A DNA stretch of 57,558 bases, counting the filler, from Dugesia japonica (lineage: Eukaryota), in the NCBI GenBank assembly GCA_001938525.1. It is 6 parts of 6 records of this genome, joined end to end, with 100 filler letters (N's around TTAATTAATTAA, not from the genome) between each part and the next. Parts side by side here need not be neighbours in the genome. Positions count along the whole stretch, not along the records: positions 31,163 to 39,712 come from MQRL01548524.1; 5 more parts are not named here. One strand, given 5' to 3'. A program made the position numbers and the translations under genes. This document shows positions 12,661 through 56,600 of this stretch, piece by piece (within the stretch, counting starts at the first letter, position 1; every line of letters begins with the position of its first letter). The notes below the pieces were generated by a model. The model saw only the letters and a list, made by a program, of their open reading frames with translations, did no database searches and had not been told where the DNA came from.

Positions 12661-13069
12661 ATACCTAGATAGTGCCTATTTGTTGCAACGATTTCCGACT
12701 TGAATGTTCTTGCTCCGTTGAATTCTCTGTACCTGTAACAACATTTTTTATTCATCCCCGACCATAGGATTTTACTCTCGTATTTATCTTTGTACCCACT
12801 TTATTTTAATTTCAGTTTGTATGTTATTTTAGCCATGCCTTGGTGATAATTTCCTCGTTCATTCCCCACCCGGGCTTGTTCAAATTCGACGTCCACGTCG
12901 AAACCCTTGAATGTTATTAATTGCATTTTATCTTTGAATAGCTATGCACGGAATCAACTATGAAAATCCCCTTTTTATGAGAACAGTTAGGCTTGAAATT
13001 CTTTTAATGTTGAATAATTATGCGTGAAAACCCCCTTTTTTTGAAGAACGTTTAAGCGTGGAATACTTT

Positions 13070-13430
13070 TAAATATTAACCATTAAAATTAACGATGAGA
13101 CCATCATTTTTATAAGAACAATTAAACTTAAATCCTTTTTTATATTTGAACAATTATGCATGAAATTAACTATAATTAATCTTGAAATCCTCTTTCGTAT
13201 CCGTACAATTAACTATGATAATTAAATTTGAAATCTTTTCATGTCTAAACAATTAGCTATAATAATTAATGTTGAAATCATTTCATAACTGAACAATTAA
13301 CTATGACAATTAAACTTAAAATCTTTTCATATCTGAACAATTATCTTTGATAATTAGCCTTGAAATCTTTTTTCTTATCTGAAAATCATACTGCGTTATC
13401 AAAATTTAACACTGTGAAATCCTTTTATCA
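13070..13430. repeat. ~40-bp tandem repeat upstream of the Gypsy-like gag (putative 5' leader)
   Basis: Repeated tgaacaattaactatgataattaa(a/t)cttgaaatcttttcatatc. Confidence 0.8.
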
Positions 13431-13975
13431 TTCGAATCTATTATAATACACGTTTGAATTAACTTAAGAACACTTCAATATATGAATCCTATTATGCGCA
13501 AGTATGTTAGGACAAACCAACGAAAAATTTGTCATGAGATTAGGTTAGGTGCTTCTAACAGGTTACCAATGCGAATTGCTTTTGCGTGACGATGAGCTTC
13601 CGGTAATTACAATCAAGTAAATACCGTTTCTGGTGATGAGGTAATTGAGACAGCCAGTATCTCCCGCTACGTGACATGCATGAGAGTAGATCATACCGAT
13701 CGTGGCTTTTAATATTTGCACAGCACTCCTTGACTGTAGGTGCTCTGGTATCCTAGTATATCTCGGTTCAGTATATCCCCATTTCTGGTTTACATATACC
13801 TTGCTCAAGACGAGAAGAGCGTTATCTTAACGAACGAGACTGGTTTTCCTGGTCCAGTCGTTTTCCTTATTTTATAACAATCACCACCGCCTGAGTAGTT
13901 TTGTTGCGGACAAGTGAGCCGATTGTATCTCAGATGTCTGGTTGATTAGACCAATTCACAACCACTAATCTAGTT

Positions 13976-14012
13976 GATAGTATGATAGTATGATAGTATG
14001 ATAGTATGATAG
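13976..14012. repeat. (GATAGTAT)n short tandem repeat
   Basis: About 4.5 perfect 8-bp units. Confidence 0.9.
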
Positions 14013-16367
14013 TTGGGGCACTTTATTGTAGTAAGTCTTTCTGTGGGTTAAGTTAATTTATATTCTTAATTTTTCCACTTTCTTATTTTACTCGATATTT
14101 ACAGTTTACATTTTGTTTAACCCTACTAATTATAGTTACGTGCCTCCATATTATTTAATACGCAACATTCTTATTAATTGTTATTGAGAAATAAAATTTA
14201 AAAAAAATTATTTTACTACGCTAAATATTTTAAGATTTCCAAGATAAATTCGCTTCAAACTCAAAGTAAACCAAAAAATTTATTTGACATTTTAAATTGC
14301 TTTTTCATAGTATCTAGTATGAGATAAATGTGTTCCAAGTATATAATTGGAGAATTAACAGTTAGTTTTGAATATTTGTGAATGTTATTATCATTCTTTT
14401 CCTAGATACAAATATAAGCAGAGGTACCCTAGGTGATGCTACGGGATGCATATTTTGAAGAGTCAAATTTTGATGAAAAATAAAAAAAGTTTTTTTCAAG
14501 AATCGAAGAGATAAAAGTGTTTGGATTTTATTTTTCATAATTAGATAATCTTATTCTTACATTCCGATAATTAGATAAACTAATATAATTTTTTTTTCAG
14601 TTCTGATAATCGAAAATATTTAAAATTTTATATATATTAGTCAAAGGATATTGATAATTTTGACAAAGTTATTTATAAGTTCGAATATTTAAACTTTAAT
14701 ATTTAAGGTTTCTCAATGAATTATAATTTTAATTAAAAGTTGGTTTCGTAATTAATCTTTAACGAGGATTGGATTAAAATATGAAAAAGTTGCATTGCTA
14801 TATTGTAGAATTACTAAAACCGAAATTGTGCCTGATGTAATTTAAAACCCAAACAAAAATAGTTTTTTTTGTATAAATCTTAGATTAAATACTTTATATT
14901 TATCCCCAATATATATTTATCCAATAATTAAATTCCTCGAATGAATAGTTTGAATTTAACTGATATAACTAAGTAGTAGTGATAACGTTGTTTATTGTTT
15001 TTTTTAATAAGCAACTGAATAAATGCTACATTTGAAATTTGGTTATTCGAACAATATTACACACTTCTAAGTAATAATATTATTAAGTTATTAATATGTG
15101 GCTACAAAAAATCGTAAATCAACTCAAAGAATAGTATATATTATTAATTAAAGGAATATTAACCGATAAATCTCGTTTCGTTTATCTATACTACTCTTGA
15201 TAGATCATCGACCACTCATCATCTTGGATGGAGATGGAAGTCCTTTATGAAGTTCATTAAATACTNNNNNNNNNNNNNNNNNNNNATTATCCACATCACT
15301 ATACATAATATTTCATGGTGACCCTATTGTAATCAATCGAGAATTATCAGGAATCCAACTCCCTCCGGATTATGAATGGTCCTTCTATCTCTTAGAGCAT
15401 CATTATGGTAATATCACAAGGTGTATTTTTGTATCTCGAAAAATCTTTAAGGTTTAAATACTGAAATTATAGCTAAGATATTAATATTAATCAATTAACA
15501 GAAATCCAAATAAATGTTTATAATACAATATAAAATTAATGAATAATAAACACATAGTTGCAAGTTTGATATTTTCACATACACTGAACAATCGTTTATT
15601 TCAGTCTTATTGTCATATAATAACGAGAAAGATCCAACCACCCACCTCCAAAATCAGGTTAATCACGTTTAATAGAAAAGTAAGTTTCTAACGACGAGTA
15701 TCTCATTCTATCACTACAATCAATTCGCCGTTTATTATCTAGTAATTATTGTTCGTTCTAATCATCATAGTGTAACATCTCAGCTCTTTCATTTATCAAG
15801 ACAGGAAATTGTCATTTCTTCCGTGTTACCCTGCGTTAATATTTATCATTTCGCGACACTTTGATTTCTTTCTACACATTGTAAATTCGTTATTTATGAG
15901 TGGAAGATCTCGCGAGCAAGTAGCTGATAAAATGGACCGTTAGAGATAGCAGAACTACCCCTGACGATCCCTCCTTCAGTGTCTTCCAAAAAATAAAAAA
16001 CATTTAACAATTTAAAATATGATAACATAAAAATAGAAGGAATCCTTTCTTCTTTTCCCGATAGTTGTTCTGATTTAATTAAACAGTTAGTAAATAGGGA
16101 ATGAAGTATCTAGATCAGGGGGTGGAAAAAAAGAAAAAAAAATTTCCAATTTTTTATTTTTTAATCCTATTTTAGATAAAAAATGAAAAATTTTCCATTT
16201 TAAATGAAGCATAAAAAATGAAAAATTTTCAATTTTAAATGAAGCATAAAAAATGAAAAATTTTCGATTTTAAATCGGTCATGAAAAATAAAAAATCGGG
16301 TATAAAAAATGAAAAATAAAAAATCCTCTTAAAGAGGATACCCACCCCCAACGAAAAAAAATATAAT

Positions 16368-19300
16368 ATGATTAAATTATTAATTTATAAAATGGCACCA
16401 ACAAACAACACTTGTTTAAAATGCGGAAGAAGTTTTTCAAATCGAATGGCTTTAATATCACACATGAAAAAATGTAATAGAGACCCGAATATAAATTACC
16501 CATGTGGGGTATGTAATAAAATAATTAAAACTCCTGAGGTATTAAGATCTCATATTAAAGCATCAAGATGTAGAAACCCTCAAGATGTGAATTTACATTG
16601 TGAGATTTGCAATCAAACATTTTAAAAACAATCTTTAGCAAAAACACATTATAGTAGTGCGGCTCATATAGAGTGTGCAGATTCAAATTCAGAATTTATT
16701 ATTTCAAGAATGTTTAATGAGCTTCCAGGTGATGATACAATTGTTTATATGAATCGAAAAATTAATAGATTATTTAAAGTTAAATATCCAGAATATAAAA
16801 TTAAACATTATAAAAATAGTAGAATTAAAATGAGGCGGGATATTTCTCATTTTGAAGAAGATAAAATTTATCATTATAAAGAAGAAATAATAGAAATTAC
16901 AAAAATATTTTTAGAATATGGAAAGAGGATAAAGTTTAGATTAACAGCTAAAGGTAAATATTTAAAAATTGTAAATGGCGATCTTGAAGAAAGAATTTTT
17001 AAATCTTATGCGCCAGTTGAAAAAAAAGTATTAGAAAGAAAAATTAAAAATATTGTTTTAGAACAATTACTTCATCTTGAGAGGCATTTAGAAGATAAAT
17101 ATATAGAAGGAAGTAATGGGAAGTTACATCACATAATTAGTTATACAATTAAATTAGAAGTGTACAAATCTACAGCAGGTGGTTCTTCATATCGAAAGTT
17201 ACCATTTAAAAAAAGTGGGGTTATTAATATAAAAAATGATGATGATAAATGTTTTCTATGCGCAATTTTAGAACACAAGCATGCTTTAGAAAATCCAAGA
17301 CAATCTGGATATCAAGAATTTCTTAGTGAGTTAAATTATGAAGTGTTTGACTTTCCAATGAAAGTGGATGATATAAAACAATTTGAAACAAAAATAATTG
17401 GAAAATTAATGTTTTTGAAATTGAAAGTGAAAAATCTCTTATTTCAATTTATACACCACACTTTTCATGTAAAACAGGTCGGGAAGAAAATAAATGTAAT
17501 TTATTACTTATTCAAGGACACTATGTACTTTGTAGAGATTTAAATAGTTACATGAGTGATAACAATAAAAATAATGTATGCATTGATTGTATGAATGTGT
17601 ATCGTAGTAAAGATTTATTTGAAAAACATCAAGATGAATGTGTTCGTCACAAGCCAATAAAGACGGGATTTTGCAAAGAAGAATTCTCTTATTTTAAAAA
17701 TCATCATTTCAAGAATAAAGTCCCCTTTAAAGCTTATGGCAATTGGAAAATTACACTTGCACTATAGATAAAAAACAAAAACCATTAAGCTTAATGTTGA
17801 TGTTTGTAAGTTTACATAATAAATAATTCCCACACATAAAAAGATTTTCACAGGTGAAAATCTTATAGATAATTTTATAAAATATTTAGAATTCTTAAAT
17901 AAAAAAAAATCATATTATGGATAATCCCGCAAGGGAAAAAAATGTTCCATATGTAGTACAAAATAAATGTAGGTATTGAAATAAATATTTAGATAAAGAT
18001 CGGGGAAATAATTTTAATAAAATAACTTGAGAATTCCGTGGACACGCACACGAACGTTGTATTAAAAAAGCATCTAAAAAAATATTTCTTCCATTCTACT
18101 TTCACAATGGCTCTGGTTATGACAATCATCTTTTCTTTAGAGAACGTTTAGAAAAACATCCAAAGGATATCACAAATATAATTCCAAATTCAGATGAGGT
18201 AAATATTTAATTTGAATTTAAAAATATTAGATTCCTTGACTCTAATAGAATGTGTAGCAACACGGGGATAGAAAAAGTGGGGGTGGTGTTAAATAAAACA
18301 TGCAAATGTCCATTTTTAAAAGCCTTCGATTTAAAACCGAAAAAATCATTTTCCCATATGAATATGTAAAAGGAAAGAATTTGGAAGAAGTAGTAAAATT
18401 ATTAAAATCGGATAGAATTCCGATAATGAAAGAATTTTACAATACATTAAAACAGAAAGAAATAACGGAATAGGAGTATAAAGAATTTCTTGAAGATCTT
18501 AGTCATTTTGAAAATATGTGGAAATACATGTTTCACTACTTGAAACTCGACGTTTTAATTTTAAAAGATTTTTTTGAAAATTTTAGAAATGTTAGTTTAG
18601 AATATTATGAAATCGATCCATGCTATTGCTACTCAGCTCCAGGACTTACATGAGCCGTTGGGTTGAAATTTACAAGAGTAAAAATTAACATATGCAAAAC
18701 CGCAAACATACTCAATATTTTTAAAAACAGAACGAGGAACTAGAGGAACTAGAATTTATAGAATGTGAGGATTTAGTATATGAAAAAGCAACAGATGATT
18801 ACAATTTCATTTATGAGGTTGATTTAGATTATCCACCAGAGATTCATGAGAAAACGAGATATTATCCATTAGCCCCAGAGAAAATGAATATAACACTGGA
18901 TATGTTAACCCCATATCAAAGAAAATTTGATAAAAAAACATTCGAAAAATAATGTTAAATTAATACTTAACCAATTCAATAAAAAAACTAAATTGTATTA
19001 GGAAGCACATTAGATTTTTATTTAGAACTTGGCATGAGGTTAAAAAAGTTCATTACAAGTTTAAAATGCCAACAAGCCCATGGTTTAGAGAGTATATTCT
19101 CTTTAATGTTGAGAAGAGAAATGAAGCAAAAAGAAATGGTGATGAATTTGGTGATTATTTATTTAAGCTTTTGAATAATTCATTTTATGGAAAGACCCTT
19201 GAAGATGTAATGTAAAAGTCGTTGGATGTGATGAAGATTTTCAAAGATTAGCATCAAAATCAACATATAAATATTCAAAAACACTTTCTCCAAACCTCGC

Positions 19301-19934
19301 CGCAATGCACATGCAAAAAACCAATCTTAAATATAACAAATTTCCGTTCATAGGGTTTACAATTTTAGAATACGCAAAAGAAGTAATGTATGATTTTGTA
19401 TATCGGTCAATGGCCCCAATAATTGGAACTGAAAATTACAAGATTCATTATTCCGACACACATTCCTTGTTTGTGTAAGTCAAGCGGCAAGAAAATTTTT
19501 ACAAGTTGAAAACACTTTTAGGAAATGATCTCTTTCAAATGAAAGATGAATTACCTAATAGTATAATTACAGAGGCTTGTTTTATAAAATCAAAGGGTTA
19601 TGCATATAAATATGTAAATGAAGATGGAAATATAGATTTTAATGCAAAACTCAAGGGAATAGCTAAGGGAAATAATATACAAATGGCAGCTTATAATAAA
19701 ATTTTAGAAGATGCTAGAGAAGTGATTTCTGGAGTAAACTATCGTTTAAAATCTCACAAACATCAAATAGAATTAACTTCTCAATGTAAAATAGCTTTAA
19801 CTGCATATAATGATAAGCATTTACTAGAAGATAATGAAACTATAGAATAGCCACACGGTAATCAACTTAACTGTAAAAGATGTGAAACGTGGCATTTTAG
19901 ATTAGATCTTTTATGGGATCGTTTAGATTGTTAA
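16368..19934 (+). pseudogene. Maverick/Polinton protein-primed family B DNA polymerase with N-terminal C2H2 fingers; frameshifted
   Basis: Intronless; three C2H2-like fingers, GSSY..LP..VINIKNDDDKCF, RGHAHERC, FHNGSGYDNH (exonuclease), RFLDS, YLKLDV, DPCYCYSAPG, YEVDLDYP..YPLAPE, KLLNNSFYGK (motif B), YSDTHSL (degenerate DTDS), K.Y and KLKGI; many stops and frameshifts. Confidence 0.92.
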
Positions 19935-20013
19935 ACTTTTAAAATTTTAATTAAATTTTGGTAATCTGGATTTTGATCTTTAAACTTTAAAATTATTTCT
20001 TGAACTTCACGAA

Positions 20014-20499
20014 TCATGGTTTACTTGTAGAAATTTCTTCATCTGTTAAAATATTATCATTCAAAGCCTTTTGCTGAAATAGGAAAAGTTTATTTTTCAC
20101 TGCCTCTAATTTTACAATTAAATTACCATACTTCTTTTTCTTCTTTTGAATTAGAGATGAATTCAGTGCACCAGTAATTGGAATTGAAGATCCTATTCCA
20201 GTTATTATAGGAAGACCAATTGTAGTAATTCCAAGACCAAGAGGAGTTGCAAAAATTACACCAACAATAGCTACGCCGGTTCCAATTAAAAATTGAGCAA
20301 TTTTTATTTCATCATCGGCAGCAGACCATTTACTATAAAATTTTCGATAGTGTTTTATTTTATCATTTATAAAATATAAGTCATTTTCAAAATCTTTAAT
20401 TCTTAGAGATGACAATTTTGATTTTAGATCTTCAAGTGTATAATTATTTATTTCCTCACGATAATTTTTTAAATCTGGATACAAGGATTCTTCTGCCAT
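20014..20499 (-). CDS. Maverick-associated small membrane protein (161 aa)
   Basis: Intact intronless ORF convergent on pPolB; LYPDL N-terminus, charged helix, Gly-rich hydrophobic segment and KKKKKY; this architecture is common among invertebrate Maverick accessory ORFs. Confidence 0.6.
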   Translation of the reverse strand: MAEESLYPDLKNYREEINNYTLEDLKSKLSSLRIKDFENDLYFINDKIKHYRKFYSKWSAADDEIKIAQFLIGTGVAIVGVIFATPLGLGITTIGLPIITGIGSSIPITGALNSSLIQKKKKKYGNLIVKLEAVKNKLFLFQQKALNDNILTDEEISTSKP

Positions 20500-23058
20500 T
20501 TTTACAAGGGAAAGTTTTTATAGTTCATTTAATATTTTTTCCCTTTCATTTTTAGCACAAGCATGAAGAACAATAAGGTTATTAATATAAATATTTTCCG
20601 GTAAAATTAAATGAAATTTTTTTATTTTCACACTCGCCACCATATTAATTAGATGTTCATTTATTACACCCCCACTAGTAGCATCATAACAAGTTCTACC
20701 ACTCTTTAAATTTAAGATGTTTATTTCTAATTTAAATTTTCCAAGTTTTTCAAATATAAAATCTAAAACCTCATCAAAATCAATAAAATTAATAGTAATA
20801 CTAATTTTAGGTATTTTCGTATATCCACCAATAAAAATACATAACTGGCCAACAGCCGACCCACACGTAAAATAAAGTTACCGCAAGAAAAAAAAAGTTT
20901 TTCATTAAGATATTCCCAACGACCGCTGATTATTACTTTTTCAAAGGTTGTGTAACGACCATACTCGGAATAATAAGGAAATCTAATTTCATTTTTAAGT
21001 AAAAAAACATTTTAAAAAACACAAAGACGCTTAAAGTAATTTCAAAAAAATTTACTTCAGTAATACCCAACCATGGTAAATAATTATTTATTAATTCTTT
21101 TATTTTTTCTAGCGTCTCTGGAGATTTAGATGTTTTAAATATTTTTAAATTTTCATTAATTTTATTTTTATGTTTTTCACTTAGAATATTTTTAATCTTT
21201 TCTAATTCCTCTACTAAAGGAAATAAAGTATCATTTTGTTTTAAAAATATAATATTTAATAAATATTTTAAAATATAATTCTTGGATTGTGTTTTAGTTT
21301 CGACTTTTTAATTATATTTTGCATGATTTGGCTACATTTCNNNNNNNNNNNNNNNNNNNNNNNNNNNNNNNNNNNNNNNNNNNNTTAATTAATTAANNNN
21401 NNNNNNNNNNNNNNNNNNNNNNNNNNNNNNNNNNNNNNNNCTCGAGTGATTGTTAGTTCATTATTATTTACATAAAGTAAGTTTCTTTGACAGTCTTCAA
21501 ATTTCGAATCATTAGAATTTAAGGAGAATCGCTGTTATAGACGCTAAGAAAGCTGAGATATTCCAAGTATACAATATAAAATAATGAAGTTATGTAATAA
21601 TATGTATTAATATTATTTCTAAATTGGTTTTTTAATGAAGCATAAACAGTCTCTTAATGTGACAGATAAAATCAAATAAAATACTTAACTTTTGGAATCA
21701 GAACATTTCATGAAAATAAAGATGAAAATATTAATAAAAATCTTTTTTTTTAAGCAAATAAGTATTAATATTAATTAAGAATAATTTATACGCCATTTAT
21801 TTCTATAACTATCGAAACAATAACGCTTTGAACTTTACTACTTTGCACTATGGATATTTTATTTAAATAAAGCGGCCAAAAATCAAAATTGATAAAACAT
21901 AAATATAATATTATCAACACAATTTCGTGAAAATGTTACTAAATATTCGACATCTANNNNNNNNNNNNNNNNNNNNNNNNNNNNNNNNNNNNNNNNNNGT
22001 ATGGTAAAATTTATTAAAAGAAATTACATTATTTGGAAGCTATTCGCTCTTCTAAATTTTTCTATAATTAATAGGACTTTGTAGATACATCGCAGAAAGA
22101 TAATTAAAACTTTTGTTCGAACCAATAAGGCTAAATGAGCTAGTTGTTTTTGGTACAAATTTATCGATATTAAGACAGCCTTATTTAAGCCGGAACCTAT
22201 TAGAACCTACAACTTTCAGCTTCNNNNNNNNNNNNNNNNNNNNNNNNNNNNNNNNNNNNNNNNNNNNNNNNNNNNNNNNNNNNNNNNNNNNNNNNNNNNN
22301 NNNNNNNNNNNNNNNNNNNNNNNNNNNNNNNNNNNNNNNNNNNNNNNNNNNNNNNNNNNNNNNNNNNNNNNNNNNNNNNNNNNNNNNNNNNNNNNNNNNN
22401 NNNNNNNNNNNNNNNNNNNNNNTTTTTTTTTTAATCCCAATAATACCTTAAAGTGAATAAAATTCCGATTGCATGTTTTGAATTAAGGTTCTTAAGTTGT
22501 TTCACAAGATCATTTAAAAGAATTTTTGACTGAATTAACAAATACTTATTAATAATAAAATATTTTATTATTTTTTAACGCATTTTCAAAAATTTGAAAA
22601 GTGTAATACTCACTCCAGTTTTCTGTTTTTATTCTGTTTTATTTTTCTCTCTTTCTCATAAAGCGCTGTTTTATTTCTTGAAATTAAATAAAACGTGTCA
22701 ATTGAATTGTATACCTAATAGGACTATTATATTTTTAATTTGAAAATGTGTTTATGTAAACTACGAGTAATGGCTTCTTTCACTTGTTATTTTCATTTTC
22801 TCGAAGGAAAAATGCTAGAACTTAAATTTTAACTTGGACGTGAATTATAAAATTTAGTACATTTCTTAAGCTTAAAATATTTTGGTAAATTTTTAATTTT
22901 CTTTGATTTAATACAAAACTAACTGTACATTTTCTTTAAAATTAAAATCACAGATTTATGATTTTTGACCGAAAAAATTAATTTTTATCCCACAGTGCTA
23001 CGTCTTGAAATGTTTTCATTACATTTTATTATATTTAAATAATAAATCCTTTTCCTAA

Positions 23059-27184: not shown

Positions 27185-28794
27185 ACGAATATTACCGAAT
27201 AATATGAGTCATACTATTTAAATAAGACGACCAAAAGAATAAAAATAAAAATTTAGATAATTAATCAGTTTGGTTATACTATTTGGAGTTTTCAAAAAAC
27301 AGATGATAATATTAATGATTTATTCATCGTTTAAATTAAAAACATCGGAATCTGAATGGCATTCTGAAACATCATTATAAATTGGAATAGAGACAAATGT
27401 TGCACAATTGCTTGATCGTTCATAAAATATTTGTCCATAAATATCATGCTTAGAAATATGTCAATCGTTATATTGCTCAGCAAATCCTGCGGATTTAATC
27501 GAATTTTTAATATTTTCACTTGAAACTGCACCCAGGCTTCACTAACCCAAGAGTTAATCGTTTGTATGGATGGAGGTTTGGAGTTCCCTCCTTTCTTATA
27601 TTCTAATTCATTTGAATGTTTCCATTTATGAATCATTCTTGATATATGATCCTTAAACTCGTGGTAAATAACTATGTCTCCAGCTTGAAGATAAGGTGTC
27701 AACCCACCGGGAATTGCGATCAACAAAATATTTCTTCTATGGCAATGAATCTTCACATTTTCTGAAATGTGAGCACGGCAAGAATCCCAAATTAAACATT
27801 TACAAGGACTAGCATCAAACAATGGGAACATTTAATTAGCCCAGGGAATTCTTAAATCCTGATTGACTCATGCTTTTGGCTGAGTAACGCCCCAAACATG
27901 GTTATATTTTTGATATTACACGTATTTTTTGAGAAGTGTAGCTTTCAAACATCGTCACAGCCAGATAAACCCACGGTTATTCTCATGGAAGAGAATCCAG
28001 TAGTTTTCAAAAGGACATGTTTTCGACCAATTATATCCAAATTTTGGGTTCGATTGTCCTCGAAATATACGGCTGTTTGATCCATTAACAAGGTTTTCAA
28101 TAAATTTATTATAGGAAATAAGCTTCGTAAATAACGCTTAAATAAATAAAGTAACTCTTCATCTGTTAACGTCGTAAAATTGGTTGTTCTTCGCAATGAA
28201 AGATTATTTCTTGACATGAATCCATTTATCAAGGTTCAAAAAATTCAAAAATCTCTAGCAACAGACACTGCTCGATTAGAAACGAAAGTTCTGGTTACTT
28301 TCGTTTTCATCATCCTCAGTTCTATAATTTCATCTACGAGCATTTCTTCCAAGCTTCCCAACGAGCATTTTCTCCCATCACCCTGTATTCTTTTCATGGT
28401 GGGCACTTGATTAAGTATTATTTCTTTATTTTGAAACCATTGCTGATAAATGGATTGCGAGTAATCGTAGTTATCACTTTGGCTGGAGTATAGCCTTGTC
28501 TTATAACACGAATTCCCTTGATCCATGTATACGATTACTTTTTTTTCTAAAATCAATTGTAATTGCCATTTGTTCAGGTAATTTAAGGTATAAATAAATT
28601 AGTATAAATATGATTTATTGAATATTTTTGTTTAAAATAAGACACATACTATTTTTAAAAGTTATTAAAACATAAATATAGATTAGGGCAAATAATAAGT
28701 ACACTTATTTGATGATCATACTAATTAAAAAATATGATCAATAAATTTGTATTGTCATATTATTTGAGTTGGTCATACTATTGGTAATATCCGT
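27185..28794 (-). mobile_element. Full-length degenerate pogo-family element within a PP6R intron
   Basis: TIRs ACG(A/G)ATATTACC(G)AATA flanked by TA on both sides; HTH region, FMSRNNLSLRRTT, MDQTAVYF, WDSCRAH and IPGGLTPYLQAGD (DDE_1); frameshifts. Confidence 0.92.
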
Positions 28795-29015: not shown

Positions 29016-29609
29016 CTAAAAAAATTATTATTAAAACCAAAATTATATAACTAATAAAGAAAATAAAGAACTTTTCATATGTATACTAAAATGAAATTGT
29101 CATTTTAAAATTATTTATTTTTAGCAACATGATTCACAGATTAGCTGTCATCTTCAGNCAAAATTTTAAAACTAAGAATAATATACTTATACTGCCAAAT
29201 TTCAAATTTAACTTCATCTTTTTTCGTTAAACAAAACTAACAGAAAATACTTTTGCGAAGTAAATATTGTTTTTATTCATAATCATTTAAAGTACTGATT
29301 AAAACTAAAATGACTAATTTAACTCAACTATCTTATTTTTTATATAAATTCATATTCCCAATAAAATTAATATTTAATTTAATTTAAAATATTCATTTAA
29401 TGAATATTTATTAAGAATCGTTAATTTCCGATTATCTATAGAATAAATAACAAATATTTCTGTTCGTATGTATGTTTGTCCATCTATAAATTTGAAATGT
29501 GAACATTTTAGAGCCAAACCAATTACATATTCAAAATCAGTATGACCTCAAGGTCTATCGCATGCTATTCATTTTTTTTATATTCAAAATTTATATGAAA
29601 ATAAAATTA

Positions 29610-31062
29610 TCAGGAAATGTAATTCACCGTAGAATACACCATTAGTGTGTGTATGGAAAAAAGATAAAAAAAGATAAAAGATTGTGTTTAGATTTTAGAC
29701 AACTAAACAAAAAACAACTAAACTATTAGACAAGCTTTCCCGATGACAAATGTGGAAGAATTGTTAGATACTTTACATGGTGCATGTTATTTTAGTTCAA
29801 TTGACCTTGGAAATGNNNNNNNNNNNNNNNNNNNNNNNNNNNNNNNNNNNNNNNNNNNNNNNNNNNNNNNNNNNNNNNNNNNNNNNNNNNNNNNNNNNNN
29901 NNNNNNNNNNNNNNNNNNNNNNNNNNNNNNNNNNNNNNNNNNNNNNNNNNNNNNNNACTTATGAATAAAGTATTAATCGGGATAAATGGTGTCGAAGCCT
30001 TAGTTTATTTGGATGATATCTTAGTTTTTTTATAATTTCTTGGAAGAGCACATGGTTCGTTTAAATAATGTGTTAAGTAGAATCAAATCTGCAGGTTTAA
30101 GAATTAATCCAGAAAAATGTTCGTTATTAAAAAAAAAGAAGTTAAATTTTTCGGACATATTATTACAGGTGAGGGAATACGCACAGATCAAAGTAAAATT
30201 GAAGCAATAAGTAAATTTGAAANNNNNNNNNNNNNNNNNNNNNNNNNNNNNNNNNNNNNNNNNNNNNNNNNNACTTATGATTAAAGTATTAATCGGGATA
30301 AATGGTGTCGAAGCCTTGGTTTATTTGGATGATATCTTAGTTTTTTTTCTAATTTCTTGGAAGAGTGCATGGTCCGTTTAAATAATGTGTTAAGTAGAAT
30401 CAAATCTGCAGGTTTAAGAATTAATCCAGAAAAATGTTCGTTATAAAAAAAGAAGTTAAATTTTTCGGACATTATTACAGGTGAGGGAATACGCACAGAT
30501 CAAAGTAAAATTGAAGGCCAAAATGTAGTAAGAGTTTGAGAAGTTTCTTAGGATTATGTAATTATCGAAAATTTATAAATACGCAGAAAAGGCCAGAATT
30601 CTAGAGGCATTGTGTGGTAAAAGTAATGAAAAGTTGATTTGGTCTGATCAGTGTGATAAGTCGTTTAATCAATTAAAAATTGCTATACAGAAAACTCCAG
30701 TGTTATTATATCCGGATTTCAACAAAGTTTTTCTTTTATACACAGACGCTAGCTTTGATGCAATTGAAGCAATACTCGCACAATTAGATGAAAATTGAAA
30801 CGAAAGAGTTATTGCTTATGGATCACATGCAATGATTTCACACGAAAGAGATTATTGTATTACAAGAAAGGAATTGTTAGCTATTTATCATTTCACTCAA
30901 CACTTCAATCATTATTTTTATGGCAAACAATTTATTCTTCGAACGGATCATAAGTTATCTACAAAAAAGCCGATTACTTCACAATTCGAGGCATGGATAA
31001 ATTTTTTAAGCAGTTTAGATATTAAGATGGAATATCGAAAGGGAATTTTACATGCAAACGCT
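29610..31062 (+). mobile_element. Ty3/Gypsy pol fragment (RT-RNase H)
   Basis: RLCLDFRQLN, YFSSIDL, YLDDIL, LYTDAS, YCITRKELLA, LRTDH and EYRKGILHANA. Confidence 0.93.
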
Positions 31063-31162
31063 NNNNNNNNNNNNNNNNNNNNNNNNNNNNNNNNNNNNNN
31101 NNNNNNTTAATTAATTAANNNNNNNNNNNNNNNNNNNNNNNNNNNNNNNNNNNNNNNNNNNN

Positions 31163-32209
31163 TTATTACGGAGTTTCCTCTTAATGGTATAATAGAACTT
31201 GTAGCTAAAAGCAATTGGATACACTAGTGAGTGGTTAAAATGTTGTCGTTTTTCTGTGTTTTATTCTATTCTTCCGATAAATTCTACGGGTTTTTATAGC
31301 ATTCTGGATACAACCTGTTTTGATGAACATTGGTTGATTTGTTTTTAGTTTCCATAACTTGTCTATGATTGGTGATGGCATCAATTTTTTTGATTTTTCG
31401 TAGTTTTAGAACTCTTATTGCAATCTATTTTTGGAGCGTCAGATGATCATTGGGGCTTTGTTTTATTTTCATTTATCTGATCCTTATTGGTCCATTCTTT
31501 TAACCCCTACCGAAGGTCTCCCGATGATGACATGATTCTTTATGGACCAAATTCTAATGCTCTGTCACCGCTTTTTCTCAAATATTTTTTTCCCACGCTC
31601 ATTGGGCTTTTCTGAGCAGAGTTATCCGTGAAAAATAATTTTTGTACTAATTTTGATTTATTTTTTTTCGAAATTAATTACGTTTTTTCTTGTAATTAAT
31701 TATTTTTCGCCTATAATTTTTTATGAATTTTATTATTTATTTTATAGTTACAATTATTGTGAGAATAATTGTTGGACTTAATCATTGATCGCATTTGAGA
31801 TTTCATTAAAATAAGNAAAAGCTTCGATCAAAATAAAATTTATTTGTAAAAAAATTCAAATTTTCAAATTTTCGACAATAGTCTTCTTCAATTTGAAAAT
31901 TTGAACTTATTTACAAGTAAATTTTATTTTGATATTGGTCTGGCTCAGATTTATTCATCTAAGATCTTCATATTCATTTTTTTGTATTTTGATTTTTTTT
32001 TATTAATTCGTTATATTATAATTTAGCCCTTCCGATTATTCCTAATTAATTTTCTTGTGGCTTCTTTATTGATGTTCTTCCTATAACTTTCCATCGTAGT
32101 TACTTGGTTCCTGATTGGCTTTCCTTTCGGCCTCTTTATTCTTCATTAATTTTTTCTTTCTCGGCCCTTGGCTGGGTTTTCATTTCAGGCTGGGTGTTTC
32201 ACCCCAACA
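31163..32209 (-). mobile_element. LTR (U3 end) of the TGTTGGGGTGAAACAC family, truncated by the spacer
   Basis: Ends GGGTGTTTCACCCCAACA; CCAAT boxes and TATAAAA (~31293-31299) on the minus strand; similar to the neighbouring LTRs. Confidence 0.7.
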
Positions 32210-32944
32210 GTACAACTAAATAATTGACTTTTTTGTTGTTGTTTCAACTATATTCTAGCTGTTTAAATACCATTTTCCGACGCAACTCGGCATCATCGCC
32301 ATTGGATTATTATTTTTAATTCAAAATTCTTGTTTCTGATTGGCGATGGTGCCAATTATAAGATTTTTTGGTAGATTTTTTGAACTTACATTGGTGGCTA
32401 TTTTTAAGTCACCCTGTGATTTTCTGTTCTTTGTTTTCCGGCCACTCATTGGCCCGTTTTTGAAATCCCTGTAGCGTTTCTCCAGGTATTGATATGATTT
32501 TCTTATGGCAAAATCTTAGTGCCCCTTATTGTTTCCTTTTCGAATTTTCTTCTCCCGAGTCTCCACGATTTTCCTGAGTGAAGATATTCGCCCGAAACTG
32601 ATTTTTACTTAATTTTTTTCTTTGGTCGTTAAAATTAATTAATTTTTCTTTATTAATTAATTATTATCTTCTTGCCTCTTTTCTTATTTTCTTTTTTGTT
32701 GGGGTTTCACCTGAGTTGATGATGAAAGAGAGCACTGGCCGGGGAAAAAACGGTCTTCAGGAGATCCCCTTCAAGAATTTAATCTAATGTCCCTAAATTA
32801 GATGTTCAGTGCAGAGTGGTTGACCACCATCTTTATGGGAGGTGCGCACTCGTACACTTTTAGTTCGGGTTCCTAAATGTTTCCCTATAATAAAGTAAAC
32901 AGACAAAACGCTATTGTTAAAGTATATTCTATGTTATGTTACAT

Positions 32945-33295
32945 CTACTCCAGAGCGCCTGGATCTAACCACTGAATCGGATCTTCAGGAATAAATTCGA
33001 AGGCTCTATTGTCATCAGCATCGTCCCAATTGAGCCATGCTGCAATACCCAGCTGGTGGGACAAATCGGCAATATATGACTTCAGAAATTCAATTTTATG
33101 TTGAAATTTAGTTGGCTTGGCTAAATTGTGATGTTTTTGGACTATGAGATCTAATTTCTTAATCAGCTTATTCCTTTGGGTCAAATGTTTTAAGAGAGCC
33201 CTGTCAGTTTGACGTTTGAGATGTCTTTCCACAAGTAATCTTTGGATGATTCGATGGCAACGACTTAATCTATTTGGAAGTCTGATGCAGGTCAC
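32945..33295 (-). CDS. LTR-borne ORF/exon, unknown 116-aa protein
   Basis: Open frame starting at the tgtttcag| acceptor (33296-95); basic helical N-terminal half and acidic Trp-rich tail; no ATG, so probably a spliced exon. Confidence 0.55.
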   Translation of the reverse strand: MTCIRLPNRLSRCHRIIQRLLVERHLKRQTDRALLKHLTQRNKLIKKLDLIVQKHHNLAKPTKFQHKIEFLKSYIADLSHQLGIAAWLNWDDADDNRAFEFIPEDPIQWLDPGALE

Positions 33296-33461
33296 TGAAA
33301 CAATTGAAATATTAAAGATAAATTGTCATCACTATATTAGGCTCAATGATTAACAGCAAATATTATTTAGTATAAAAGAAAAATCAAAGAAAATTGAAAA
33401 ACAGAGACAACTCTCAATAACATGAGAAATATTTATTTACAGAGATGGAATATTACAACAC

Positions 33462-33779
33462 TTAGGGACGCGTCGTTTGAGTACCTTTATCAATCATGGG
33501 AGGTTCTAAAGGCATTTTTTCTTTGAGAAGTAAGATGTCGTTGACCAGTTTATTTTCTCGGTCGTGGTTAGACCGGATTATCTCTACGAAAGATTTCACC
33601 TGTGACTTCCAAACTTTCTCTTGAGCGTGAGAAGCCTCAGTCTCTTTACGAATGGTGACATATTTGGCCCTGTAACGCTTTACTTTGGCATTAGTTGTGG
33701 CAATCTTTGCTTCAAATCGCAGTTTAGCTAATCGGTACAACTCGCAAGACATCTCCGTGTCTTCGCTGGACTAGCTCAT
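33462..33779 (-). CDS. LTR-borne coiled-coil ORF (96 aa from 33752; upstream in-frame ATG at 33779 interrupted by TAG)
   Basis: Preceded by ttctgtag| acceptor (33821-20); helical charged protein ending DKGTQT. Confidence 0.55.
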
Positions 33780-33980
33780 TTTCTTGTTAGGGGCTGTAGT
33801 TCGATTTAACAAGGAATCACTACAGAATTAAGAACATCAATTAATCAATGATTCCCAAAACAATTGAACAAAATATTAACATTCCTAATTATTTCTGAAA
33901 AGGTATAACAGAACTCAGTTATAACAAGGTGCGAGACAACTATTTTATTAATTTACGACAAAAGAGGGTGAAGAAAAATA

Positions 33981-34377
33981 TCATACAGAAGTTTCATTAT
34001 TTGGGTCGGAATTTTCCGAAACAATGTTGCCAATGGAATCACGAATATTCCACAAATTATTGTGAACAAATGCCGTAAGTTTATGGAGCGGAGGCAGGTG
34101 ATTGGTGGTGATGCTTACCAAAAAATACCCTTCGTGCCTTTCACGAAAGATCTGGGCATACCATCTCAATCTACGGTTGCAACTGTCACCGCATGATATA
34201 CGGCCCTTGTGGGATCGGGTCCGTTCCATGAATAATAGGAGTGGAGCTCATTTGCGTCCCATTCCCTTTCGTCTTTAGCGTTTCCCATTGGTAAATTGAC
34301 TCTGCCGACCAGAACACCGGCATTTCTATCTTTTGTATATTGTACGGCCAGTGGTACGGTCTAGTAGTATCTTCCAT
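33981..34377 (-). pseudogene. LTR-borne ORF (~130 aa), probably one gene with a frameshift
   Basis: tttgaacag| acceptor (34390-89) just upstream of ATG 34377; two overlapping frames, 34186-34377 and 33981-34229. Confidence 0.5.
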
Positions 34378-34523
34378 TTATGCTACATCTGTTCAAAGAT
34401 AATACTAATTCTAATACCTTAAATTAAAGAAAATAATTTAACGATAGAATATTAATATCAAGACTAGGGTTGTCCCATTGTATTTTATTTAAGACTAAAC
34501 GACATAAAACAAAATTCAGATGA

Positions 34524-34706
34524 TTATTCCTCATCCATATCCACATTCAAGTTTAACGGGAACATCTCGGCGAAACACTGGAGGTCCGTTTTTTCGGGAT
34601 GTTCTATTAGTTTAGGGAATAACTGATGTGCGATTAGTTATCGCGTCCGAGTGGTTTCTCTCTGCTTTCGGATCGATTTGAGGATGCATAACTGTTCACT
34701 TGACAT
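34524..34706 (-). pseudogene. LTR-borne 60-codon ORF with one in-frame stop
   Basis: aatttag|ATAATG; MSSEQLCILKSIRKQRETTRTR*LIAHQLFPKLIEHPEKTDLQCFAEMFPLNLNVDMDEE*. Confidence 0.45.
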
Positions 34707-36539
34707 TATCTAAATTAATTATTAAACGTTGGTAATTATACTACATTAGGTGATTTTAAATAGAACAAAAATTTGGTGTAGTCCTTCCCAACTTATACTG
34801 ACGCTGACTCCTGAGGAATAATTATGGAGACGTAATGAAAATTATCGTGTCATGGATGATTTCCCTAACAGACCGAGCTTCTTAGTAACTGTTGGGTAGT
34901 TGGTACCTGCCATAATGGAGTTCATTGTATTCTTAACTCTTGTACATGGTTAATCATCAATCATAATATTACTGATACGATAAGGATATTTATGAAAATT
35001 GGTTTAGTAAGTATAATGATAACTATAATCAGAATAAATATAACAAGATTGGAAGTATGATAATAACAATAATCATAATTATAATAATACGAAAATTGAT
35101 GTATTATGAATAAGATTGGTAAACATATTAATAATGTCATCGATGTTAAAAATTATCATCATAATAGTAATCGGGTCTAGCATCTCGAGATTCAGCATAG
35201 CCAATTTTGTAATAACAATAGTACTGATTTGGATGTTAGTGGTGCTAAGATGAATTATGCTGAACTAATGTCAAAGAGAACAAGAAAACACCACTATGCT
35301 TAAACTTAAATAATGATTAGTATCAAATCACCACCGATATTACAACTAATTCCTAATTGTACTGAGAGGGGAATGAAGAGGATTCTTTTTTCTTATTACG
35401 ATAATACTGGACAATCTGGCTTGGTAGAGCAGCACATGTCGACTCGCAGTTTTTCATTTTATCTATATCGGTGTAATGTTGACAGTAGTAATCACATCCA
35501 CAATGAATCAGGACAGAGATAAGATATGTAACACTGACTTTGCTCCTTTTATAAATTGTAAAATATACCTAAACGATGATGATAACAATTTCTATAGCTT
35601 TTACAATATTGCCAGATAATCTTATTATAGATTATTAGCAATGCCGTACATCATGATTAACATTCAGTATGTTCTTGAGTTGAGTCCACAATTAGAGTTT
35701 CTTATTCAAATATCACTTCTCGGTAAATGAGAGAAAATATTTTGGTTTCACTTCTTCTTAGGTAAAAAAGGAGATAATTAATAAAATTAGTAGTTAGATG
35801 GTTTTTATTCTGATTTTTAGGGGGTTTAAATAGCTTTCTGGATACACCCCGACATCATTACTATTGGGTTGTTATTTTTAGTTAAAATTTCTCCGATTCT
35901 ATTGGTGTAGACGGGGATTTCTAAGAATTTTTTCTATTTTCTTTTACGCCATTGGCGTCTATTTTTGGAGTGACATGTGATTGTCATTCCTTTGTTTTAT
36001 TTTTATTTTCAGATCTCTTATTGGACCCATCTTCAAATCCCTGTGAAAACTTTCTGAATGGTGCTAAGATTTTCTAATATCCAACTCTTAATGCTTCGTC
36101 CCCAGTTCTTCTCAGATTTTTTAACTAGAAGTCGTTGTGATTATGCAGAGTAGAGATAATCACTAAAACCCGATTTTCGAACAATTTCAATTTATTTTTC
36201 TTTTAATTTAATTAATATTTCTGCCATAAATAATTGTTTACTAATACTAATTTTTTCTGGCGTTTAGTATTAATTTGATAATTCTTTTTAATTATTAGCC
36301 TTGGTGTCAGCTAACTTGGTTTACCCCAAGGTCTTCATATTTATCTTCTTTTTCTTTAAGCAGTATTTTAGCCTATTTTGTCCATGATTGATTATCCGTA
36401 ATTGATTATTATACTCTTTCATGTGACTACTGTTCTTCATTTAGTTATTTCTTTGTTAGTACCCGTCAACTTATGATTTGGGCCCTAAGCCCTGCTTTCA
36501 TCTTAATTGGGTGTTTCACGTCAACATTTTTAATAATTA

Positions 36540-51782: not shown

Positions 51783-52190
51783 CAAACCTTTTATATTGCT
51801 GCTCTTCTAACTGTCTGTAGACTCATTGTTTGTTAAAATTGAGCTAGACTTAATAAATCTAATGCTATTGGTAGTATTATTGTTATAAAGCTACCATTTT
51901 GTTCGTACAATACCGTTTTCATTACTTTCTTATTCTTGGTATTTACAATTGACAACAAAGAATTTCTATGTTTTTCCAATGCTATTCTTTGCTCTTCGTT
52001 TAAAGTTACATTACCACGAGCAATATTTACAATAATCTCGAGTAAATCATCAGTACCAAATGATGGAAATACTTGCAGAATTTTCATTCTCTTCATACTA
52101 GGAGAATGTATTAATGCTGTAAAGAATGATTTACTTCGTTCTAAATCCATCTTCTATTTAAATACATTAATAACACTAAGTTGTTTATAA
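49128..52190 (-). mobile_element. Decayed Maverick/Polinton (terminus, subterminal repeats, ATPase relic, PX-like ORF)
   Basis: AGTAGAGGGATAG terminus like that at 3656; tttaggtgaa..ggtcaa repeats at ~49440-50240; minus-strand relic GLVILDDVI (Walker B-like, ~50795-50817) and GRKHFSRDDIL; intact PX-like ORF. Confidence 0.65.
51833..52150 (-). CDS. Maverick PX/'GasderminX'-type virion core/membrane-active protein
   Basis: LLEIIVNIARGNVTL..Q...LEKHRNSL..L....K...L..QNGSFITIILP.. matches the recalled Maverick pattern E...N.L.GNV.L...Q...L..H...LR.L..Q.GGF...LLP. Confidence 0.75.
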   Translation of the reverse strand: MDLERSKSFFTALIHSPSMKRMKILQVFPSFGTDDLLEIIVNIARGNVTLNEEQRIALEKHRNSLLSIVNTKNKKVMKTVLYEQNGSFITIILPIALDLLSLAQF

Positions 52191-53619: not shown

Positions 53620-56600
53620 TTTATTTATGAATATCACAAAATGGCAAAAGCCAAAAATTACATGACTTAGTCAGTCAATAAATTTTAATATATGATCAGT
53701 TTTTAAAGTTTATAGTAAAGCCGTTTTTTCTTTGCTCATTGAGTAGGTGTTGTGAGCTTTCCAGTTTTCATTGCTCCATTGGATGTTAGAAATGATGCAA
53801 TCATTTTTTAGAGTTTTGATTGCAGTCAAGCTGAGTCCGATATTACTCAAAATATCAGGAGACCAGGAACCCAAACATCTTACGACAATGGTTTTGAGAG
53901 AGACTTCAAAATCAGGAAGATGAGATTTGATTTCTGATTGAAGATCCTTGTAGTAATCTTCATTTTCTAATCTTATCCCATCCATCTGGTTTTTGACATC
54001 ATAAGGTGTTTTGATATCTACTAACCAGAAGATCTTTTTGGACTGATTTCGGATGTGAAGATCAACCCAAAGATTGGTTTTAGAGAGATCGCATGAATGG
54101 TCTTTCATGATACCGAGAAAAGAATTCTCAAATGAGATAGCCTTGAAGTTTAAGTGAAGGATTGCATTATGTCTCTTTTGAAGGTAGTATTGGTTATTGC
54201 ACCAGAGAAAAATGTGCATTTGAGTTTCTGGATCTGATGTACAATGCCGAGAATTGCGATCCTTCACAGGTTTACTCAAATGATCATTAACAGGTAATGA
54301 GTTTGTTCTCGCACTGTGAAAAAATTTCCAATCAGAGATTGAGATAGCACCATTGTGGAGGATCTTGTTGGAGGTTTTGCACATTGAGAGAAGCTTGCTG
54401 AATAGCCTCCCATTTTTTGCTCAATCCAAGTGTTGAAATAGGATAGTCCGATGAGTTCATACAACTTTAGAGAAGACAGTGATGCTGCATCTGGAAGAAG
54501 CATGATAGATTTCTGTAAATAACTGAATTAAAGGCATATGTTTTTTCTAACTGACTAAATGCAGCAGTGATCTAGCAATTTTTTGCCAAATAACGGATGT
54601 TGGTTCTTAATTTTGTTTAGAAGACTTGAATTCCGGATTCATAATCGCCTTCATTGAGCCAGTCAATTGATTTCTTCACTATTACCATAAAACATAGTCA
54701 TTTGATTTGCTTTTCATAACAGCTTTTTTTAAGGCTATATCTGGCAATCTTAGCAACGGTAATGTCAGAGCAGGTGAGATCTCTGAAAGCTTGAGAAATT
54801 ACTTGAATTACTCATCTCTGCACGAAATAAGACCAATACCTCCTAGATGGATAGGAGTGTTGAGGTAAGCTTTTGTTGTTCTGATGCCTATGTGAAGGAT
54901 GTCTTTTTTGATGATTTGCCTGAGCTGTCGATCGATACAATTCTTGTTTTGCGGGCTATCTAGATGAAACGTGGGAATGTTGTAATTCCGGAAAGAGAAG
55001 ATGAGCCGCGGGTGCAAAAAACTATGTATGCATTGATTTTCTGCTAAGAAAAAGAATTGAGTCGATAATAATACGGAACTCGCTGATGATTTTCTTGAGA
55101 ACTTCAGTAGAACAATTCTTTGTTTTGTGATTAATTTCAAGTCCAAGATATCAATACCTCTTGTCATTGTCAACAAAAAGAATAGGCTACGAATTGATCG
55201 TGATAGAGCTGTCATCGTTTATGTCATTGGTGAGATATCCGCATATGTTCACATTGAATTTCATATGGCTCCATTTGACTCAATGATTTGCCAAATTAAC
55301 CATACATTGGAGATCATCTTGGCTTTGAGCAAAGATGGCGATATCATCTGCGTAAGCCAGAAATTTAACATTCTGATCCCCAATGTTGATACCAAATCCT
55401 TTCATTTTTGAAATCACATTGAGAATTGGGTTGAGACCAATATTGAATAATAACATTGAAAGTGGACAATCTTGACGGACTCCTCTTTTTATTTTGATAG
55501 GAGCTGTGTGATGTTGGAACAGGTGTAAAGAGAGGAACAACTGAAGTAAATATTAAGAATGAGATCTATTAAAGATTGTTTCATCTGCATGGCAGCAAGA
55601 ACGCCGACGATATGCTGAATGGGAATAGATCCAAAGGCATCAGAGATATCTAGGAAGGCAATGTAGAAAACCTTGTTTTTTTTCTTCGAGTAGCTGTCCT
55701 CAATTATAGAACGAAGAATACTATTTTGTTTGGCGCAATAAGAAGAAGGAATGAGAAGAGTTTTGAATTCTTTCTACATAGCTGGAATTACCTCAGTGGT
55801 AATAATTTTGTTGAAGAAGGTGCACAAAAGTTCATCTTTGGGATCACAATGCCGGATGTCGCTGTAGGTGACATTGCTGATACCCGGACAAGAGTTGGTG
55901 GTCTTCTTGAGGATTTTGGTTATAGTTTCAGGAGAGATTTGCTTAAATTCAAAGACTTGCCCTTGTTTGATAGATGGAAAGAAAGACCAGTCTGTATCAG
56001 GGCACTCAATTGATTTGAGGCTGTAGAATTTTTCAATATAATCTTTGGATGGATAAGTAGATGTTTTTATAGAGTTTAGAATTGTGTTGACTACCATTTT
56101 TGGTGAATAAAGATAACTTTTGAGAAGATGCAAATCATTGGTAGCAGGCAAGTCTCTATTTGACCAATTAAGGGATTTCCTTTTGGTCTGACGAGAATTC
56201 CAAATAAAATCAGTGAAAGCAATTTTCATATAGTTCGAGTCCATTTATTTGTAAGTTATGATCAAATCACTGACGAGATCAATTCTCTCTTGAAGAGTGA
56301 GAGGTTTCAGAGATTTTGATGCAGTGAGATCTCTGTTGAGATGTTTCTTCGTAGGCTGCAGAGCAATGATGAAAGAGATTTTCTTTTCTTGGTTAAAACA
56401 AAAGAGAAGCCATTGCAATTCATCAATTTGGAGACGACATAAAACAAGATGCTTGTCAATGAATTCTCGATAACTGATTGAATGTCTGATGTAGAGTTCA
56501 TCATTTGAAGCAATTTTACTTCCCATGGTAGGATGCATTAAGAATACTTTCAAAGATTTGATAATCTCACAGCAAAAGAGCAGAATTTCGATAGAAGTAT

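Follow-up and report, generated by a model that had tools for sequence, protein, structure and literature searches.

A 3.83-kb repeat in the genome of the planarian Dugesia japonica (NCBI GenBank assembly GCA_001938525.1) appears to be a decayed solo long terminal repeat (LTR) of a gypsy-type retrotransposon family that carries a row of small genes within itself. It lies in a window of 57,558 nucleotides (nt), filler included, which joins parts of six records of this genome and in which positions 31,163 to 39,712 come from MQRL01548524.1; all positions given here count along that window. The explanation that we favour, tentatively and on sequence grounds, is that the 3 kb downstream of the LTR promoter hold at least four small genes, arranged as an operon that would be resolved by spliced-leader trans-splicing. 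The original prediction, made from the same DNA, had described a multi-copy LTR-like unit with small genes downstream of its promoter, and this description was upheld by contigs of the family, by the promoter module and by tests of the reading frames. To it we add AATAAA signals after three of the open reading frames (ORF3, ORF4 and ORF5), a Cys-rich frame at 35568-35353 and a nest of related LTRs around the unit, none of which had been mentioned before.

Coding evidence for the array

Six small ORFs had been predicted on the sense (minus) strand, separated by AT-rich spacers (Table 1). The difference in composition was borne out, with a GC content of 0.37-0.44 in ORF2-6 against 0.19-0.27 in the spacers, and the GC variance lay above that of 500 out of 500 shuffles. 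The four longest sense frames, with 126, 102, 88 and 71 codons, exceeded those of shuffled sequence, both globally (P 0.004) and when the shuffling was done within 150-nt blocks (P 0.007), and the longest antisense frame reached 74 codons, compared with 126 and 102 for the sense strand. ORF3 (GC by codon position 0.48/0.30/0.51), ORF5 and ORF6 all have their lowest GC at codon position 2. When the ORFs were tested singly for stop codons against shuffles, ORF6 passed (P 0.003; 0 stops vs. 10 and 11 in the other sense frames) and so did ORF5 (P 0.037), while ORF1 (P 1.0), ORF2 (P 0.50) and ORF3 (P 0.37) failed; ORF4 was excluded from this test because it is frameshifted. The copy is indeed partly decayed, as had been proposed, with in-frame stops in ORF2, ORF3 and ORF5, a frameshift in ORF4 and no ATG in ORF6.

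Comparison with related contigs (runs X1 to X5) gave the strongest evidence, at the level of codons. Across the 30 letters beyond 33578 in ORF5, third codon positions account for 6 of 9 (X2), 9 of 12 (X3), 9 of 13 (X4) and 8 of 12 (X5) differences (binomial P 0.04, 0.004, 0.009 and 0.02, respectively), numbers that were counted by eye on four rows that share relatives and are not independent, no X1 row being shown. On the other side of the ORF5 core the row compared is more diverged, with 8 of 17 differences at third positions. Fixed differences in ORF5 and ORF6, among those listed (40 of 621 and 40 of 646), are spread over all codon positions, which is what decay confined to this copy would produce. 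In ORF4, 4 of the 6 differences listed against one related contig between 33989 and 34025 fall at third positions of the C-terminal frame (40 of 621 rows). Many diverged contigs are drawn by the ORF5 core (~33531-33584) and by the 3′ half of ORF3, where depth peaks (bins 34476-34609 and 34496-34624). Judged by its open frame and its codons, ORF5 is shown to be a real protein-coding gene; ORF6 is probably one, and ORF3 and ORF4 are likely ones. Of the remaining two predicted ORFs, ORF2 is weakly supported as a gene and ORF1 is unsupported, its GC content and its stops (Table 1) having removed it from the list. For the array as a whole, these frame and codon patterns make it very probable that real genes are present.

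The additional Cys-rich frame has 0 stops (P 0.011 vs. its own shuffles, for a frame picked after the fact), and related contigs vary in length near its 5′ end, such that the frame may not be shared. A second TATAAAAGG to which attention had been drawn (35553-35545) is present in this copy, but related contigs in three of four runs vary in length inside it, and we did not retain it as a feature.

At the protein level, the heptad pattern of ORF5, with 65% hydrophobic residues at the best a/d register vs. 25-45% at the others, predicts a coiled coil, and its C-terminus, DKGTQT, fits the TQT anchor for dynein light chain LC8 with Asp at −4. The pattern K.TQT has two occurrences in 115,112 six-frame residues. 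According to the cited account, LC8 partners carry the TQT anchor in a disordered stretch, often with Asp at −4, and many TQT peptides fail to bind LC8 (PMC6607443). The identity of ORF5 as a coiled-coil adaptor binding LC8 is a prediction only. A single-sequence model of ORF6 has two long helices and an acidic-aromatic tail at low confidence (predicted local distance difference test score, pLDDT, 55), with no fold match at E 0.001 or better. Using homologue searches that are insensitive for short decayed proteins, we obtained no Pfam match at the curated cut-off for seven of seven ORF pieces and no homologue in word-seeded searches with ORF5 and ORF6; ESM Atlas returned only unnamed clusters with low recognition, and no homologue was found in viral and metagenome contigs, where one match (L001) of 16 residues was put down to chance. 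PHROGs gave a single match, to the coiled-coil region of ORF5 (E 2e-4, taken as compositional), and none for the seven other proteins searched. Provisionally, the proteins of the array are orphans.

Signals between the genes

All six predicted acceptor AG dinucleotides are present, with the G at 34972, 34710, 34389, 33820, 33295 and 32885 (the positions given earlier had been those of the A, one higher). AATAAA follows the stops of ORF3, ORF4 and ORF5 by 34, 31 and 24 nt and stands 101, 130 and 143 nt ahead of the next AG, with T-rich sequence between, and the order of stop, AATAAA, T-rich stretch, AG and next gene recurs in three consecutive instances. Such a placement of AATAAA in at least three of six spacers has a P of 0.004 against dinucleotide shuffles, and 130 of 1400 comparable 60-mers from the window contain one. 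ORF1, ORF2 and ORF6 are followed by short spacers (36-60 nt) in which AATAAA is absent. The genes are co-oriented behind one promoter, and their stop-to-acceptor spacers of 36-167 nt fall within the operon criterion of genes at most 300 bp apart that is given in the cited account (PMC12582326). The accounts available place the median intercistronic distance of Schistosoma mansoni at 99 bp and the peak in Macrostomum near 100 bp (PMC12582326, PMC8629364). From the order of these signals, one acceptor-to-poly(A) unit per gene is the likely arrangement.

The claim that the ORFs are closely preceded by YAG acceptors holds for all four ATG-bearing ORFs (ORF2-5), each of which has an acceptor-like site within 45 nt, compared with 17-25% of background ATGs, under thresholds chosen so as to include the claimed sites; it does not hold as an overall enrichment of YAGs (see below). 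At ORF2, ORF5 and ORF6 a stop codon directly adjoins the AG; at ORF4 the stop comes as the second triplet, and behind the AG of the terminal region as the fourth. The frame that begins at the AG of ORF3 leads into the ATG of that ORF. An immediate stop after three of six AGs compares with 5-11% in the background (P 0.003-0.02 depending on the background), a pattern that was noticed post hoc. Flatworm spliced leaders end in AUG in the accounts cited (PMC12582326, PMC9851317). No GTRAG donor was found in the leader (35800-35570).

The original prediction had offered either cis alternative splicing or spliced-leader trans-splicing as the means of decoding. Between these two, the sequence makes trans-splicing fairly likely, because AATAAA follows three ORFs, the next acceptor then lies ~100-140 nt away, the leader has no GTRAG and stops stand behind three acceptors; the mechanism itself is one that we infer. 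Transcription would start near 35800 and the LTR promoter would give one precursor, which would be cleaved and polyadenylated behind a gene, the downstream piece then gaining a capped leader at the next AG. If that leader ends in AUG, the stop triplets right behind three acceptors would cancel the AUG and ORF3 would be in frame with it, so that at every one of the six sites a joined AUG would either be in frame or run into a stop, immediately or a little further on. Splicing to the last acceptor (32885) of a full-length element would rid the gag-pol message of the 3 kb of genes ahead of it, and such a short-leader gag-pol RNA might nonetheless be copied, since the cassette would be rebuilt from the 3′ LTR. 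Packaged genomic RNA would need to skip the internal signals, as Cer1 of Caenorhabditis elegans skips splice sites. Taken to its full extent, namely that a lineage built an operon of four to six orphan genes in its LTR, that the AUG-ending leader of the host resolves it and that one gene encodes a dynein-light-chain adaptor, the scheme is possible but doubtful.

The repeat family and competing explanations

The predicted TG..CA unit stands: it starts with TGTTG at 36526 and finishes with CAACA at 32697, a short inverted repeat, with AAAA on either side. The 4-bp target-site duplication claimed for it is less secure, as it sits in an A-run where 4 and 5 bp are indistinguishable, and carries little information; the neighbouring unit at 36540-38047 has a clean 4-bp ATTA duplication. 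Five related units lie within 31.2-39.6 kb (minus-strand starts at 39645, ~38272, 36526 and 32209, plus-strand start at 36540), and in comparison with each of the four other starts the start of the 3.83-kb unit outscores 199-200 of 200 shuffles; its end outscores 199 of 200 in comparison with the end of 36540-38047. The U3-like CCAAT/TATA/AATAAA block was confirmed (Table 1). Its region (35800-36526) has 66-70% identity to 31288-31749 and 32261-32437, and CCAAT lies 35-36 nt upstream of TATA in four of the five LTR-like units compared, the 3.83-kb unit among the four. The promoter is ~700 nt from the 5′ end of the unit, and 3.1 kb remain downstream. Because of the TG..CA ends, the related starts and end and the common CCAAT-TATA module, we consider it probable that the unit is a solo LTR of a gypsy-type retrotransposon family.

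The unit belongs to a multi-copy, dispersed family. In run X5, 4161 contigs matched and all 30 bins were covered, with most contigs 85-95% alike (172 at ≥99%, 600 at 95-99%, 2135 at 90-95% and 1254 under 90%); the summed depth of these contigs does not equal copy number, and the kind of sample is not on record. Among the matches listed, pieces from five runs that are ~87-90% alike tile most of the unit (33135-33383, 33349-33957, 33854-34122, 34164-34330, 34488-34987 and 35074-35670) and bridge gene-spacer borders, as at 33349-33957 and 34488-34987, while 32873-32988, 34123-34163, 34988-35057 and 35671-35953 have no diverged piece in the 8 and 32 rows shown and no single listed piece spans the unit. 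Since such relatives tile the interior, it is a family feature and not an unrelated one-off insertion, a danger that the original prediction had itself raised. Roughly, this copy is 10-13% diverged from its relatives. The contigs of X1-X4 were guessed to be RNA, and their uneven cover, with little over ORF2-ORF4, was not used as evidence. One related X1 contig is a deletion variant that lacks 33106-33543 (joint 33105-33544) and joins ORF5 to ORF6 sequence; the joint was rejected as an intron on account of its non-splice ends and 8 extra letters.

Several results weigh against a trans-spliced operon in an LTR. The closest complete neighbour (36540-38047) has no ORF array, no paired-LTR copy, primer site or gag-pol link was seen in the material examined, and the gag-like element at 9-14 kb has ends unrelated to those of the family. 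No LTR setting could be established for the diverged relatives of ORF5, and the single ORF3 loose-end row compared has no third-position bias (5 of 12). Among the signals, AATAAA is absent after ORF2 and ORF6, acceptor-like YAGs by a simple rule number 8 in sense and 9 in antisense, GTRAG is depleted across the 3.1 kb only at P 0.06 (1 vs. 4.2 expected), and the genomic RNA would be truncated at poly(A) signals inside a 5′ LTR if these were not skipped. Lastly, three poly(A)/cDNA read sets from three studies (X6, X7 and X10; 1.6-1.9 billion letters each, 6-25% of each run) gave 153, 18 and 15 reads at ≥85%, every one of them partial and mostly at the core 32740-32784 or in low-complexity stretches; none had a whole-read match to the unit, most interior bins were empty, and no splice junction was found at any acceptor. 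GT..AG ends are likewise missing from all joints listed in the two rounds of comparison, 10 and 8 in number, the 8 coming from the four contig sets guessed to be RNA. No leader-bearing reads were seen at the acceptors, sites at which X6, X7 and X10 have no coverage. The subfamily is silent or rare in the sampled read sets. Among the listed data sets that contain the stretch none is recorded as RNA, which speaks neither for nor against expression. Stem cells, the germ line or PIWI-depleted animals are given in the cited account as settings of LTR de-repression (PMC8532177).

Some of these results would be explained if the array were a passenger cassette that rides in one LTR subfamily and was captured from another element (from an array of Polinton-like or viral type, or from the internal accessory part of a larger retroelement), or if the unit were a whole non-autonomous element; selection and the poly(A) signals would in that case go back to the donor. 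DNA-virus-like elements usually have small co-oriented genes with a poly(A) signal apiece, the array-less neighbour and the missing paired copy fit, and the cores of ORF5 and ORF3 receive far more contig depth than their flanks, so relatives exist outside the subfamily. We nevertheless hold this origin to be unlikely, given that no inner terminal repeat or duplication marking an insertion was found within the unit, that no joint among those listed connects the promoter part directly to the terminal part, that both unit ends resemble neighbouring LTR-like units and that all frames are co-oriented with the promoter. Quite unlikely, in our estimate, is the same gene-bearing LTR decoded in cis, in which a short leader exon would be joined to alternative acceptors and the genes would be alternative last exons with their own poly(A) sites, comparable to complex retroviruses and the adenovirus late unit. 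The layout of acceptor, gene and AATAAA fits this scheme equally well, and ORF6, without an ATG here, could borrow one from the leader exon; yet it does not account for the regular spacing of 100-140 nt or for the stops that directly follow three acceptors, there is no GTRAG in the leader and no GT..AG joint among those listed. By the accounts cited, extra ORFs of LTR elements are typically expressed from spliced messages (PMC5408684) and the env of Tor3a uses a non-canonical donor (PMC4402516), so the missing GTRAG is not decisive.

It is also conceivable, if improbable, that the genes are real and LTR-borne while the AGs are incidental, with reinitiation, or else small promoters inside the AT-rich spacers, accounting for expression. 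The antisense strand has no fewer acceptor-like sites, the AG-free zones ahead of them are only borderline long (P 0.07) and Tor elements have internal promoters according to the cited description (PMC4402516), but the proximity of a site to each of the four ATG-bearing ORFs exceeds the background and two spacers are just 36-60 nt. That the array consists of chance open frames in a compositionally patchy long LTR is highly improbable: although ORF1, ORF2 and ORF3 singly fail to beat shuffles and no homologue emerged in the searches made, block-wise shuffles that keep the GC landscape still return P 0.007, and the third-position bias of ORF5 and the AATAAA placement speak against chance.

Surroundings, precedents and significance

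Table 1 Features of the 3.83-kb unit and of related units next to it, as positions along the window.
Feature	Position	Strand	Remarks
Whole unit, probable solo LTR, 3830 bp	32697..36526	minus	TGTTG...CAACA ends, AAAA(A) flanks
U3-like A-rich region, several CCAAT boxes	35800..36526	minus	last CCAAT 35867, TATTTAAA 35832, AATAAA 35809
Extra Cys-rich open frame, 71 codons, no ATG at start, uncertain	35353..35568	minus	directly behind acceptor-like AG at 35569
ORF1, low-complexity AAT-like stretch	35030..35200	minus	GC 0.25; 2-5 stops per sense frame; matches AAT microsatellites
ORF2, 72 codons, 2 in-frame stops	34746..34964	minus	acceptor-like AG ending 34972, stop triplet directly after
ORF3, 60 codons, 1 in-frame stop	34524..34706	minus	acceptor-like AG ending 34710, in frame with ATG; AATAAA 34489
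ORF4, ~130 codons, at least 1 frameshift, middle frame uncertain	33981..34377	minus	acceptor-like AG ending 34389; AATAAA 33949; GC 0.44
ORF5, 105 codons, stop at codon 3, 96 open from second ATG	33462..33779	minus	acceptor-like AG ending 33820, stop triplet after; AATAAA 33437
ORF6, 116 open codons, no ATG in this copy	32945..33295	minus	acceptor-like AG ending 33295, stop triplet after
Terminal region behind last acceptor-like AG (32885)	32697..32885	minus	ATTAAA at 32783; core 32740-32784
Host LTR-like unit, downstream part (CCAAT + TATA)	32210..32696	minus	interrupted by 3.83-kb unit; start ~38272, runs on through 38048 and 36539-36527
Related complete 1.5-kb solo LTR-like unit	36540..38047	plus	ATTA duplication; ~750 nt after TATA, no ORF array

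The terminal region, which had been predicted to be structured, folds no better than shuffles (z −1.0), and that claim is not supported. Its core is common to several related repeats present in poly(A) RNA (partial read matches in three of three read sets) and is a candidate packaging or 3′-end signal; Rfam gave a single sub-threshold match, outside the unit. From 31163 to 39645, five related LTR-like units are nested within each other, a pair of them lying head to head at a distance of 13 bp in the A-rich part of a third, and the 3.83-kb unit is itself inserted in the A-rich U3-like part of the related unit that starts at ~38272. These nested insertions suggest a preference for AT-rich or self sequence.

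Planarian genomes are described in the cited account as >70% AT and gypsy-rich (PMC11410931). The GC content of the window is mostly 0.2-0.35, which corresponds to AT-rich animal-type DNA with much mobile-element debris, and its Pfam matches are an aspartyl protease, an RNase H and a claudin-family exon. The joins at 8880-8979, 21341-21440, 31063-31162, 39713-39812 and 48881-48980 each consist of 44 N, a 12-base all-frame stop linker and 44 N, and order and orientation across them may be unreliable. The aspartyl protease (Pfam RVP, E 7e-5) belongs to a decayed element of gag-like type on the minus strand at 8980-14000, which is rich in CCHC knuckles, has additional frames of coiled-coil and CCHC character as well as a leader containing tandem repeats of 44 nt, and in which no reverse transcriptase was seen; CCCCAAC at 14018 and TGTTGGGG at 9243 were tested as ends of the LTR family and rejected. 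A retrotransposon pol fragment on the plus strand at 29500-31110, partly duplicated across joins, carries the RNase H (30799-31110; Pfam E 1e-14), which is on the opposite strand from the 3.83-kb unit and separated from it by a join. Further out are a foldback-like unit at 4063-8879, whose long nested inverted arms (86-97% complementary) flank AT-rich tandem repeats, and a claudin/PMP22-family host-gene exon on the plus strand at 41546-41827 (Pfam Claudin_2, E 3e-7), for which a search for longer relatives returned none at E 1e-10. By eye, we take 16320-21307 and 51833-52153 to resemble Polinton-type DNA polymerase B fragments and small accessory proteins, the broken minus-strand frames at 53710-57276 to resemble a non-LTR retrotransposon with reverse transcriptase and restriction-like endonuclease, and 27331-28598 to resemble a pogo-type transposase remnant.

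Accessory genes that lie in or reach into an LTR and are read from spliced messages are familiar from sag of mouse mammary tumour virus, nef of human immunodeficiency virus and bel of foamy viruses, but these are single genes in U3 upstream of the promoter, whereas the unit has several genes downstream of it. The planarian giant Burro (GYPSM1) is likewise of gypsy type, belongs to AT-rich genomes, exceeds 30 kb, has LTRs and has accessory coding capacity, though the cited description places its extra domains in a polyprotein of 4,900-5,100 residues or in an upstream accessory ORF, and not in a row of small genes within the LTR (PMC6431247). As Burro was compared by description only, the LTR found here could belong to a family that has been catalogued already. 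By the same account Ogre elements have long LTRs of 1.9-6.5 kb and one or two extra ORFs, these being in the internal region (PMC6431247), and the extra ORFs of rotifer LTR elements, some coiled-coil, are described as internal too, next to LTRs of 159-551 bp (PMC5408684). For Cer1, also a gypsy element, a subgenomic RNA is reported to be SL1 trans-spliced while the genomic RNA must skip consensus splice sites, the account giving a single site of trans-splicing and a coding-region message that is spliced in cis, with no polycistronic LTR array (PMC3315495). The layout of the unit is that of SL2-type operons of flatworms and nematodes as the cited accounts describe them, with co-oriented genes, a poly(A) site, ~100 nt and a trans-splice acceptor (PMC12582326, PMC8629364). 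Those operons consist of conserved host genes, whereas the unit would hold orphan genes in a mobile terminal repeat. No description of a multi-gene array in an LTR or of a retrotransposon operon was met in the literature searched, which comprised titles and the starts of abstracts, with Repbase and planarian-genome supplements outside the search. Extra ORFs in LTR elements, the use of a spliced leader by Cer1 and single LTR-encoded retroviral genes are thus already known; an LTR with several genes that are spaced as in an operon and lie downstream of its promoter would be new.

The usual view of LTRs is that they are regulatory DNA, overlapping a single accessory gene at the most. If the proposed arrangement is true, every solo LTR of this kind would be a self-contained multi-gene expression unit, such that solo LTRs, commonly counted as dead remnants, would spread working genes, and repeat-masked annotation would conceal orphan small proteins. 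Should trans-splicing resolve the array, the family would be a selfish element that exploits the operon machinery of its host, and would offer a test case for the persistence of operons and of AUG-ending leaders.

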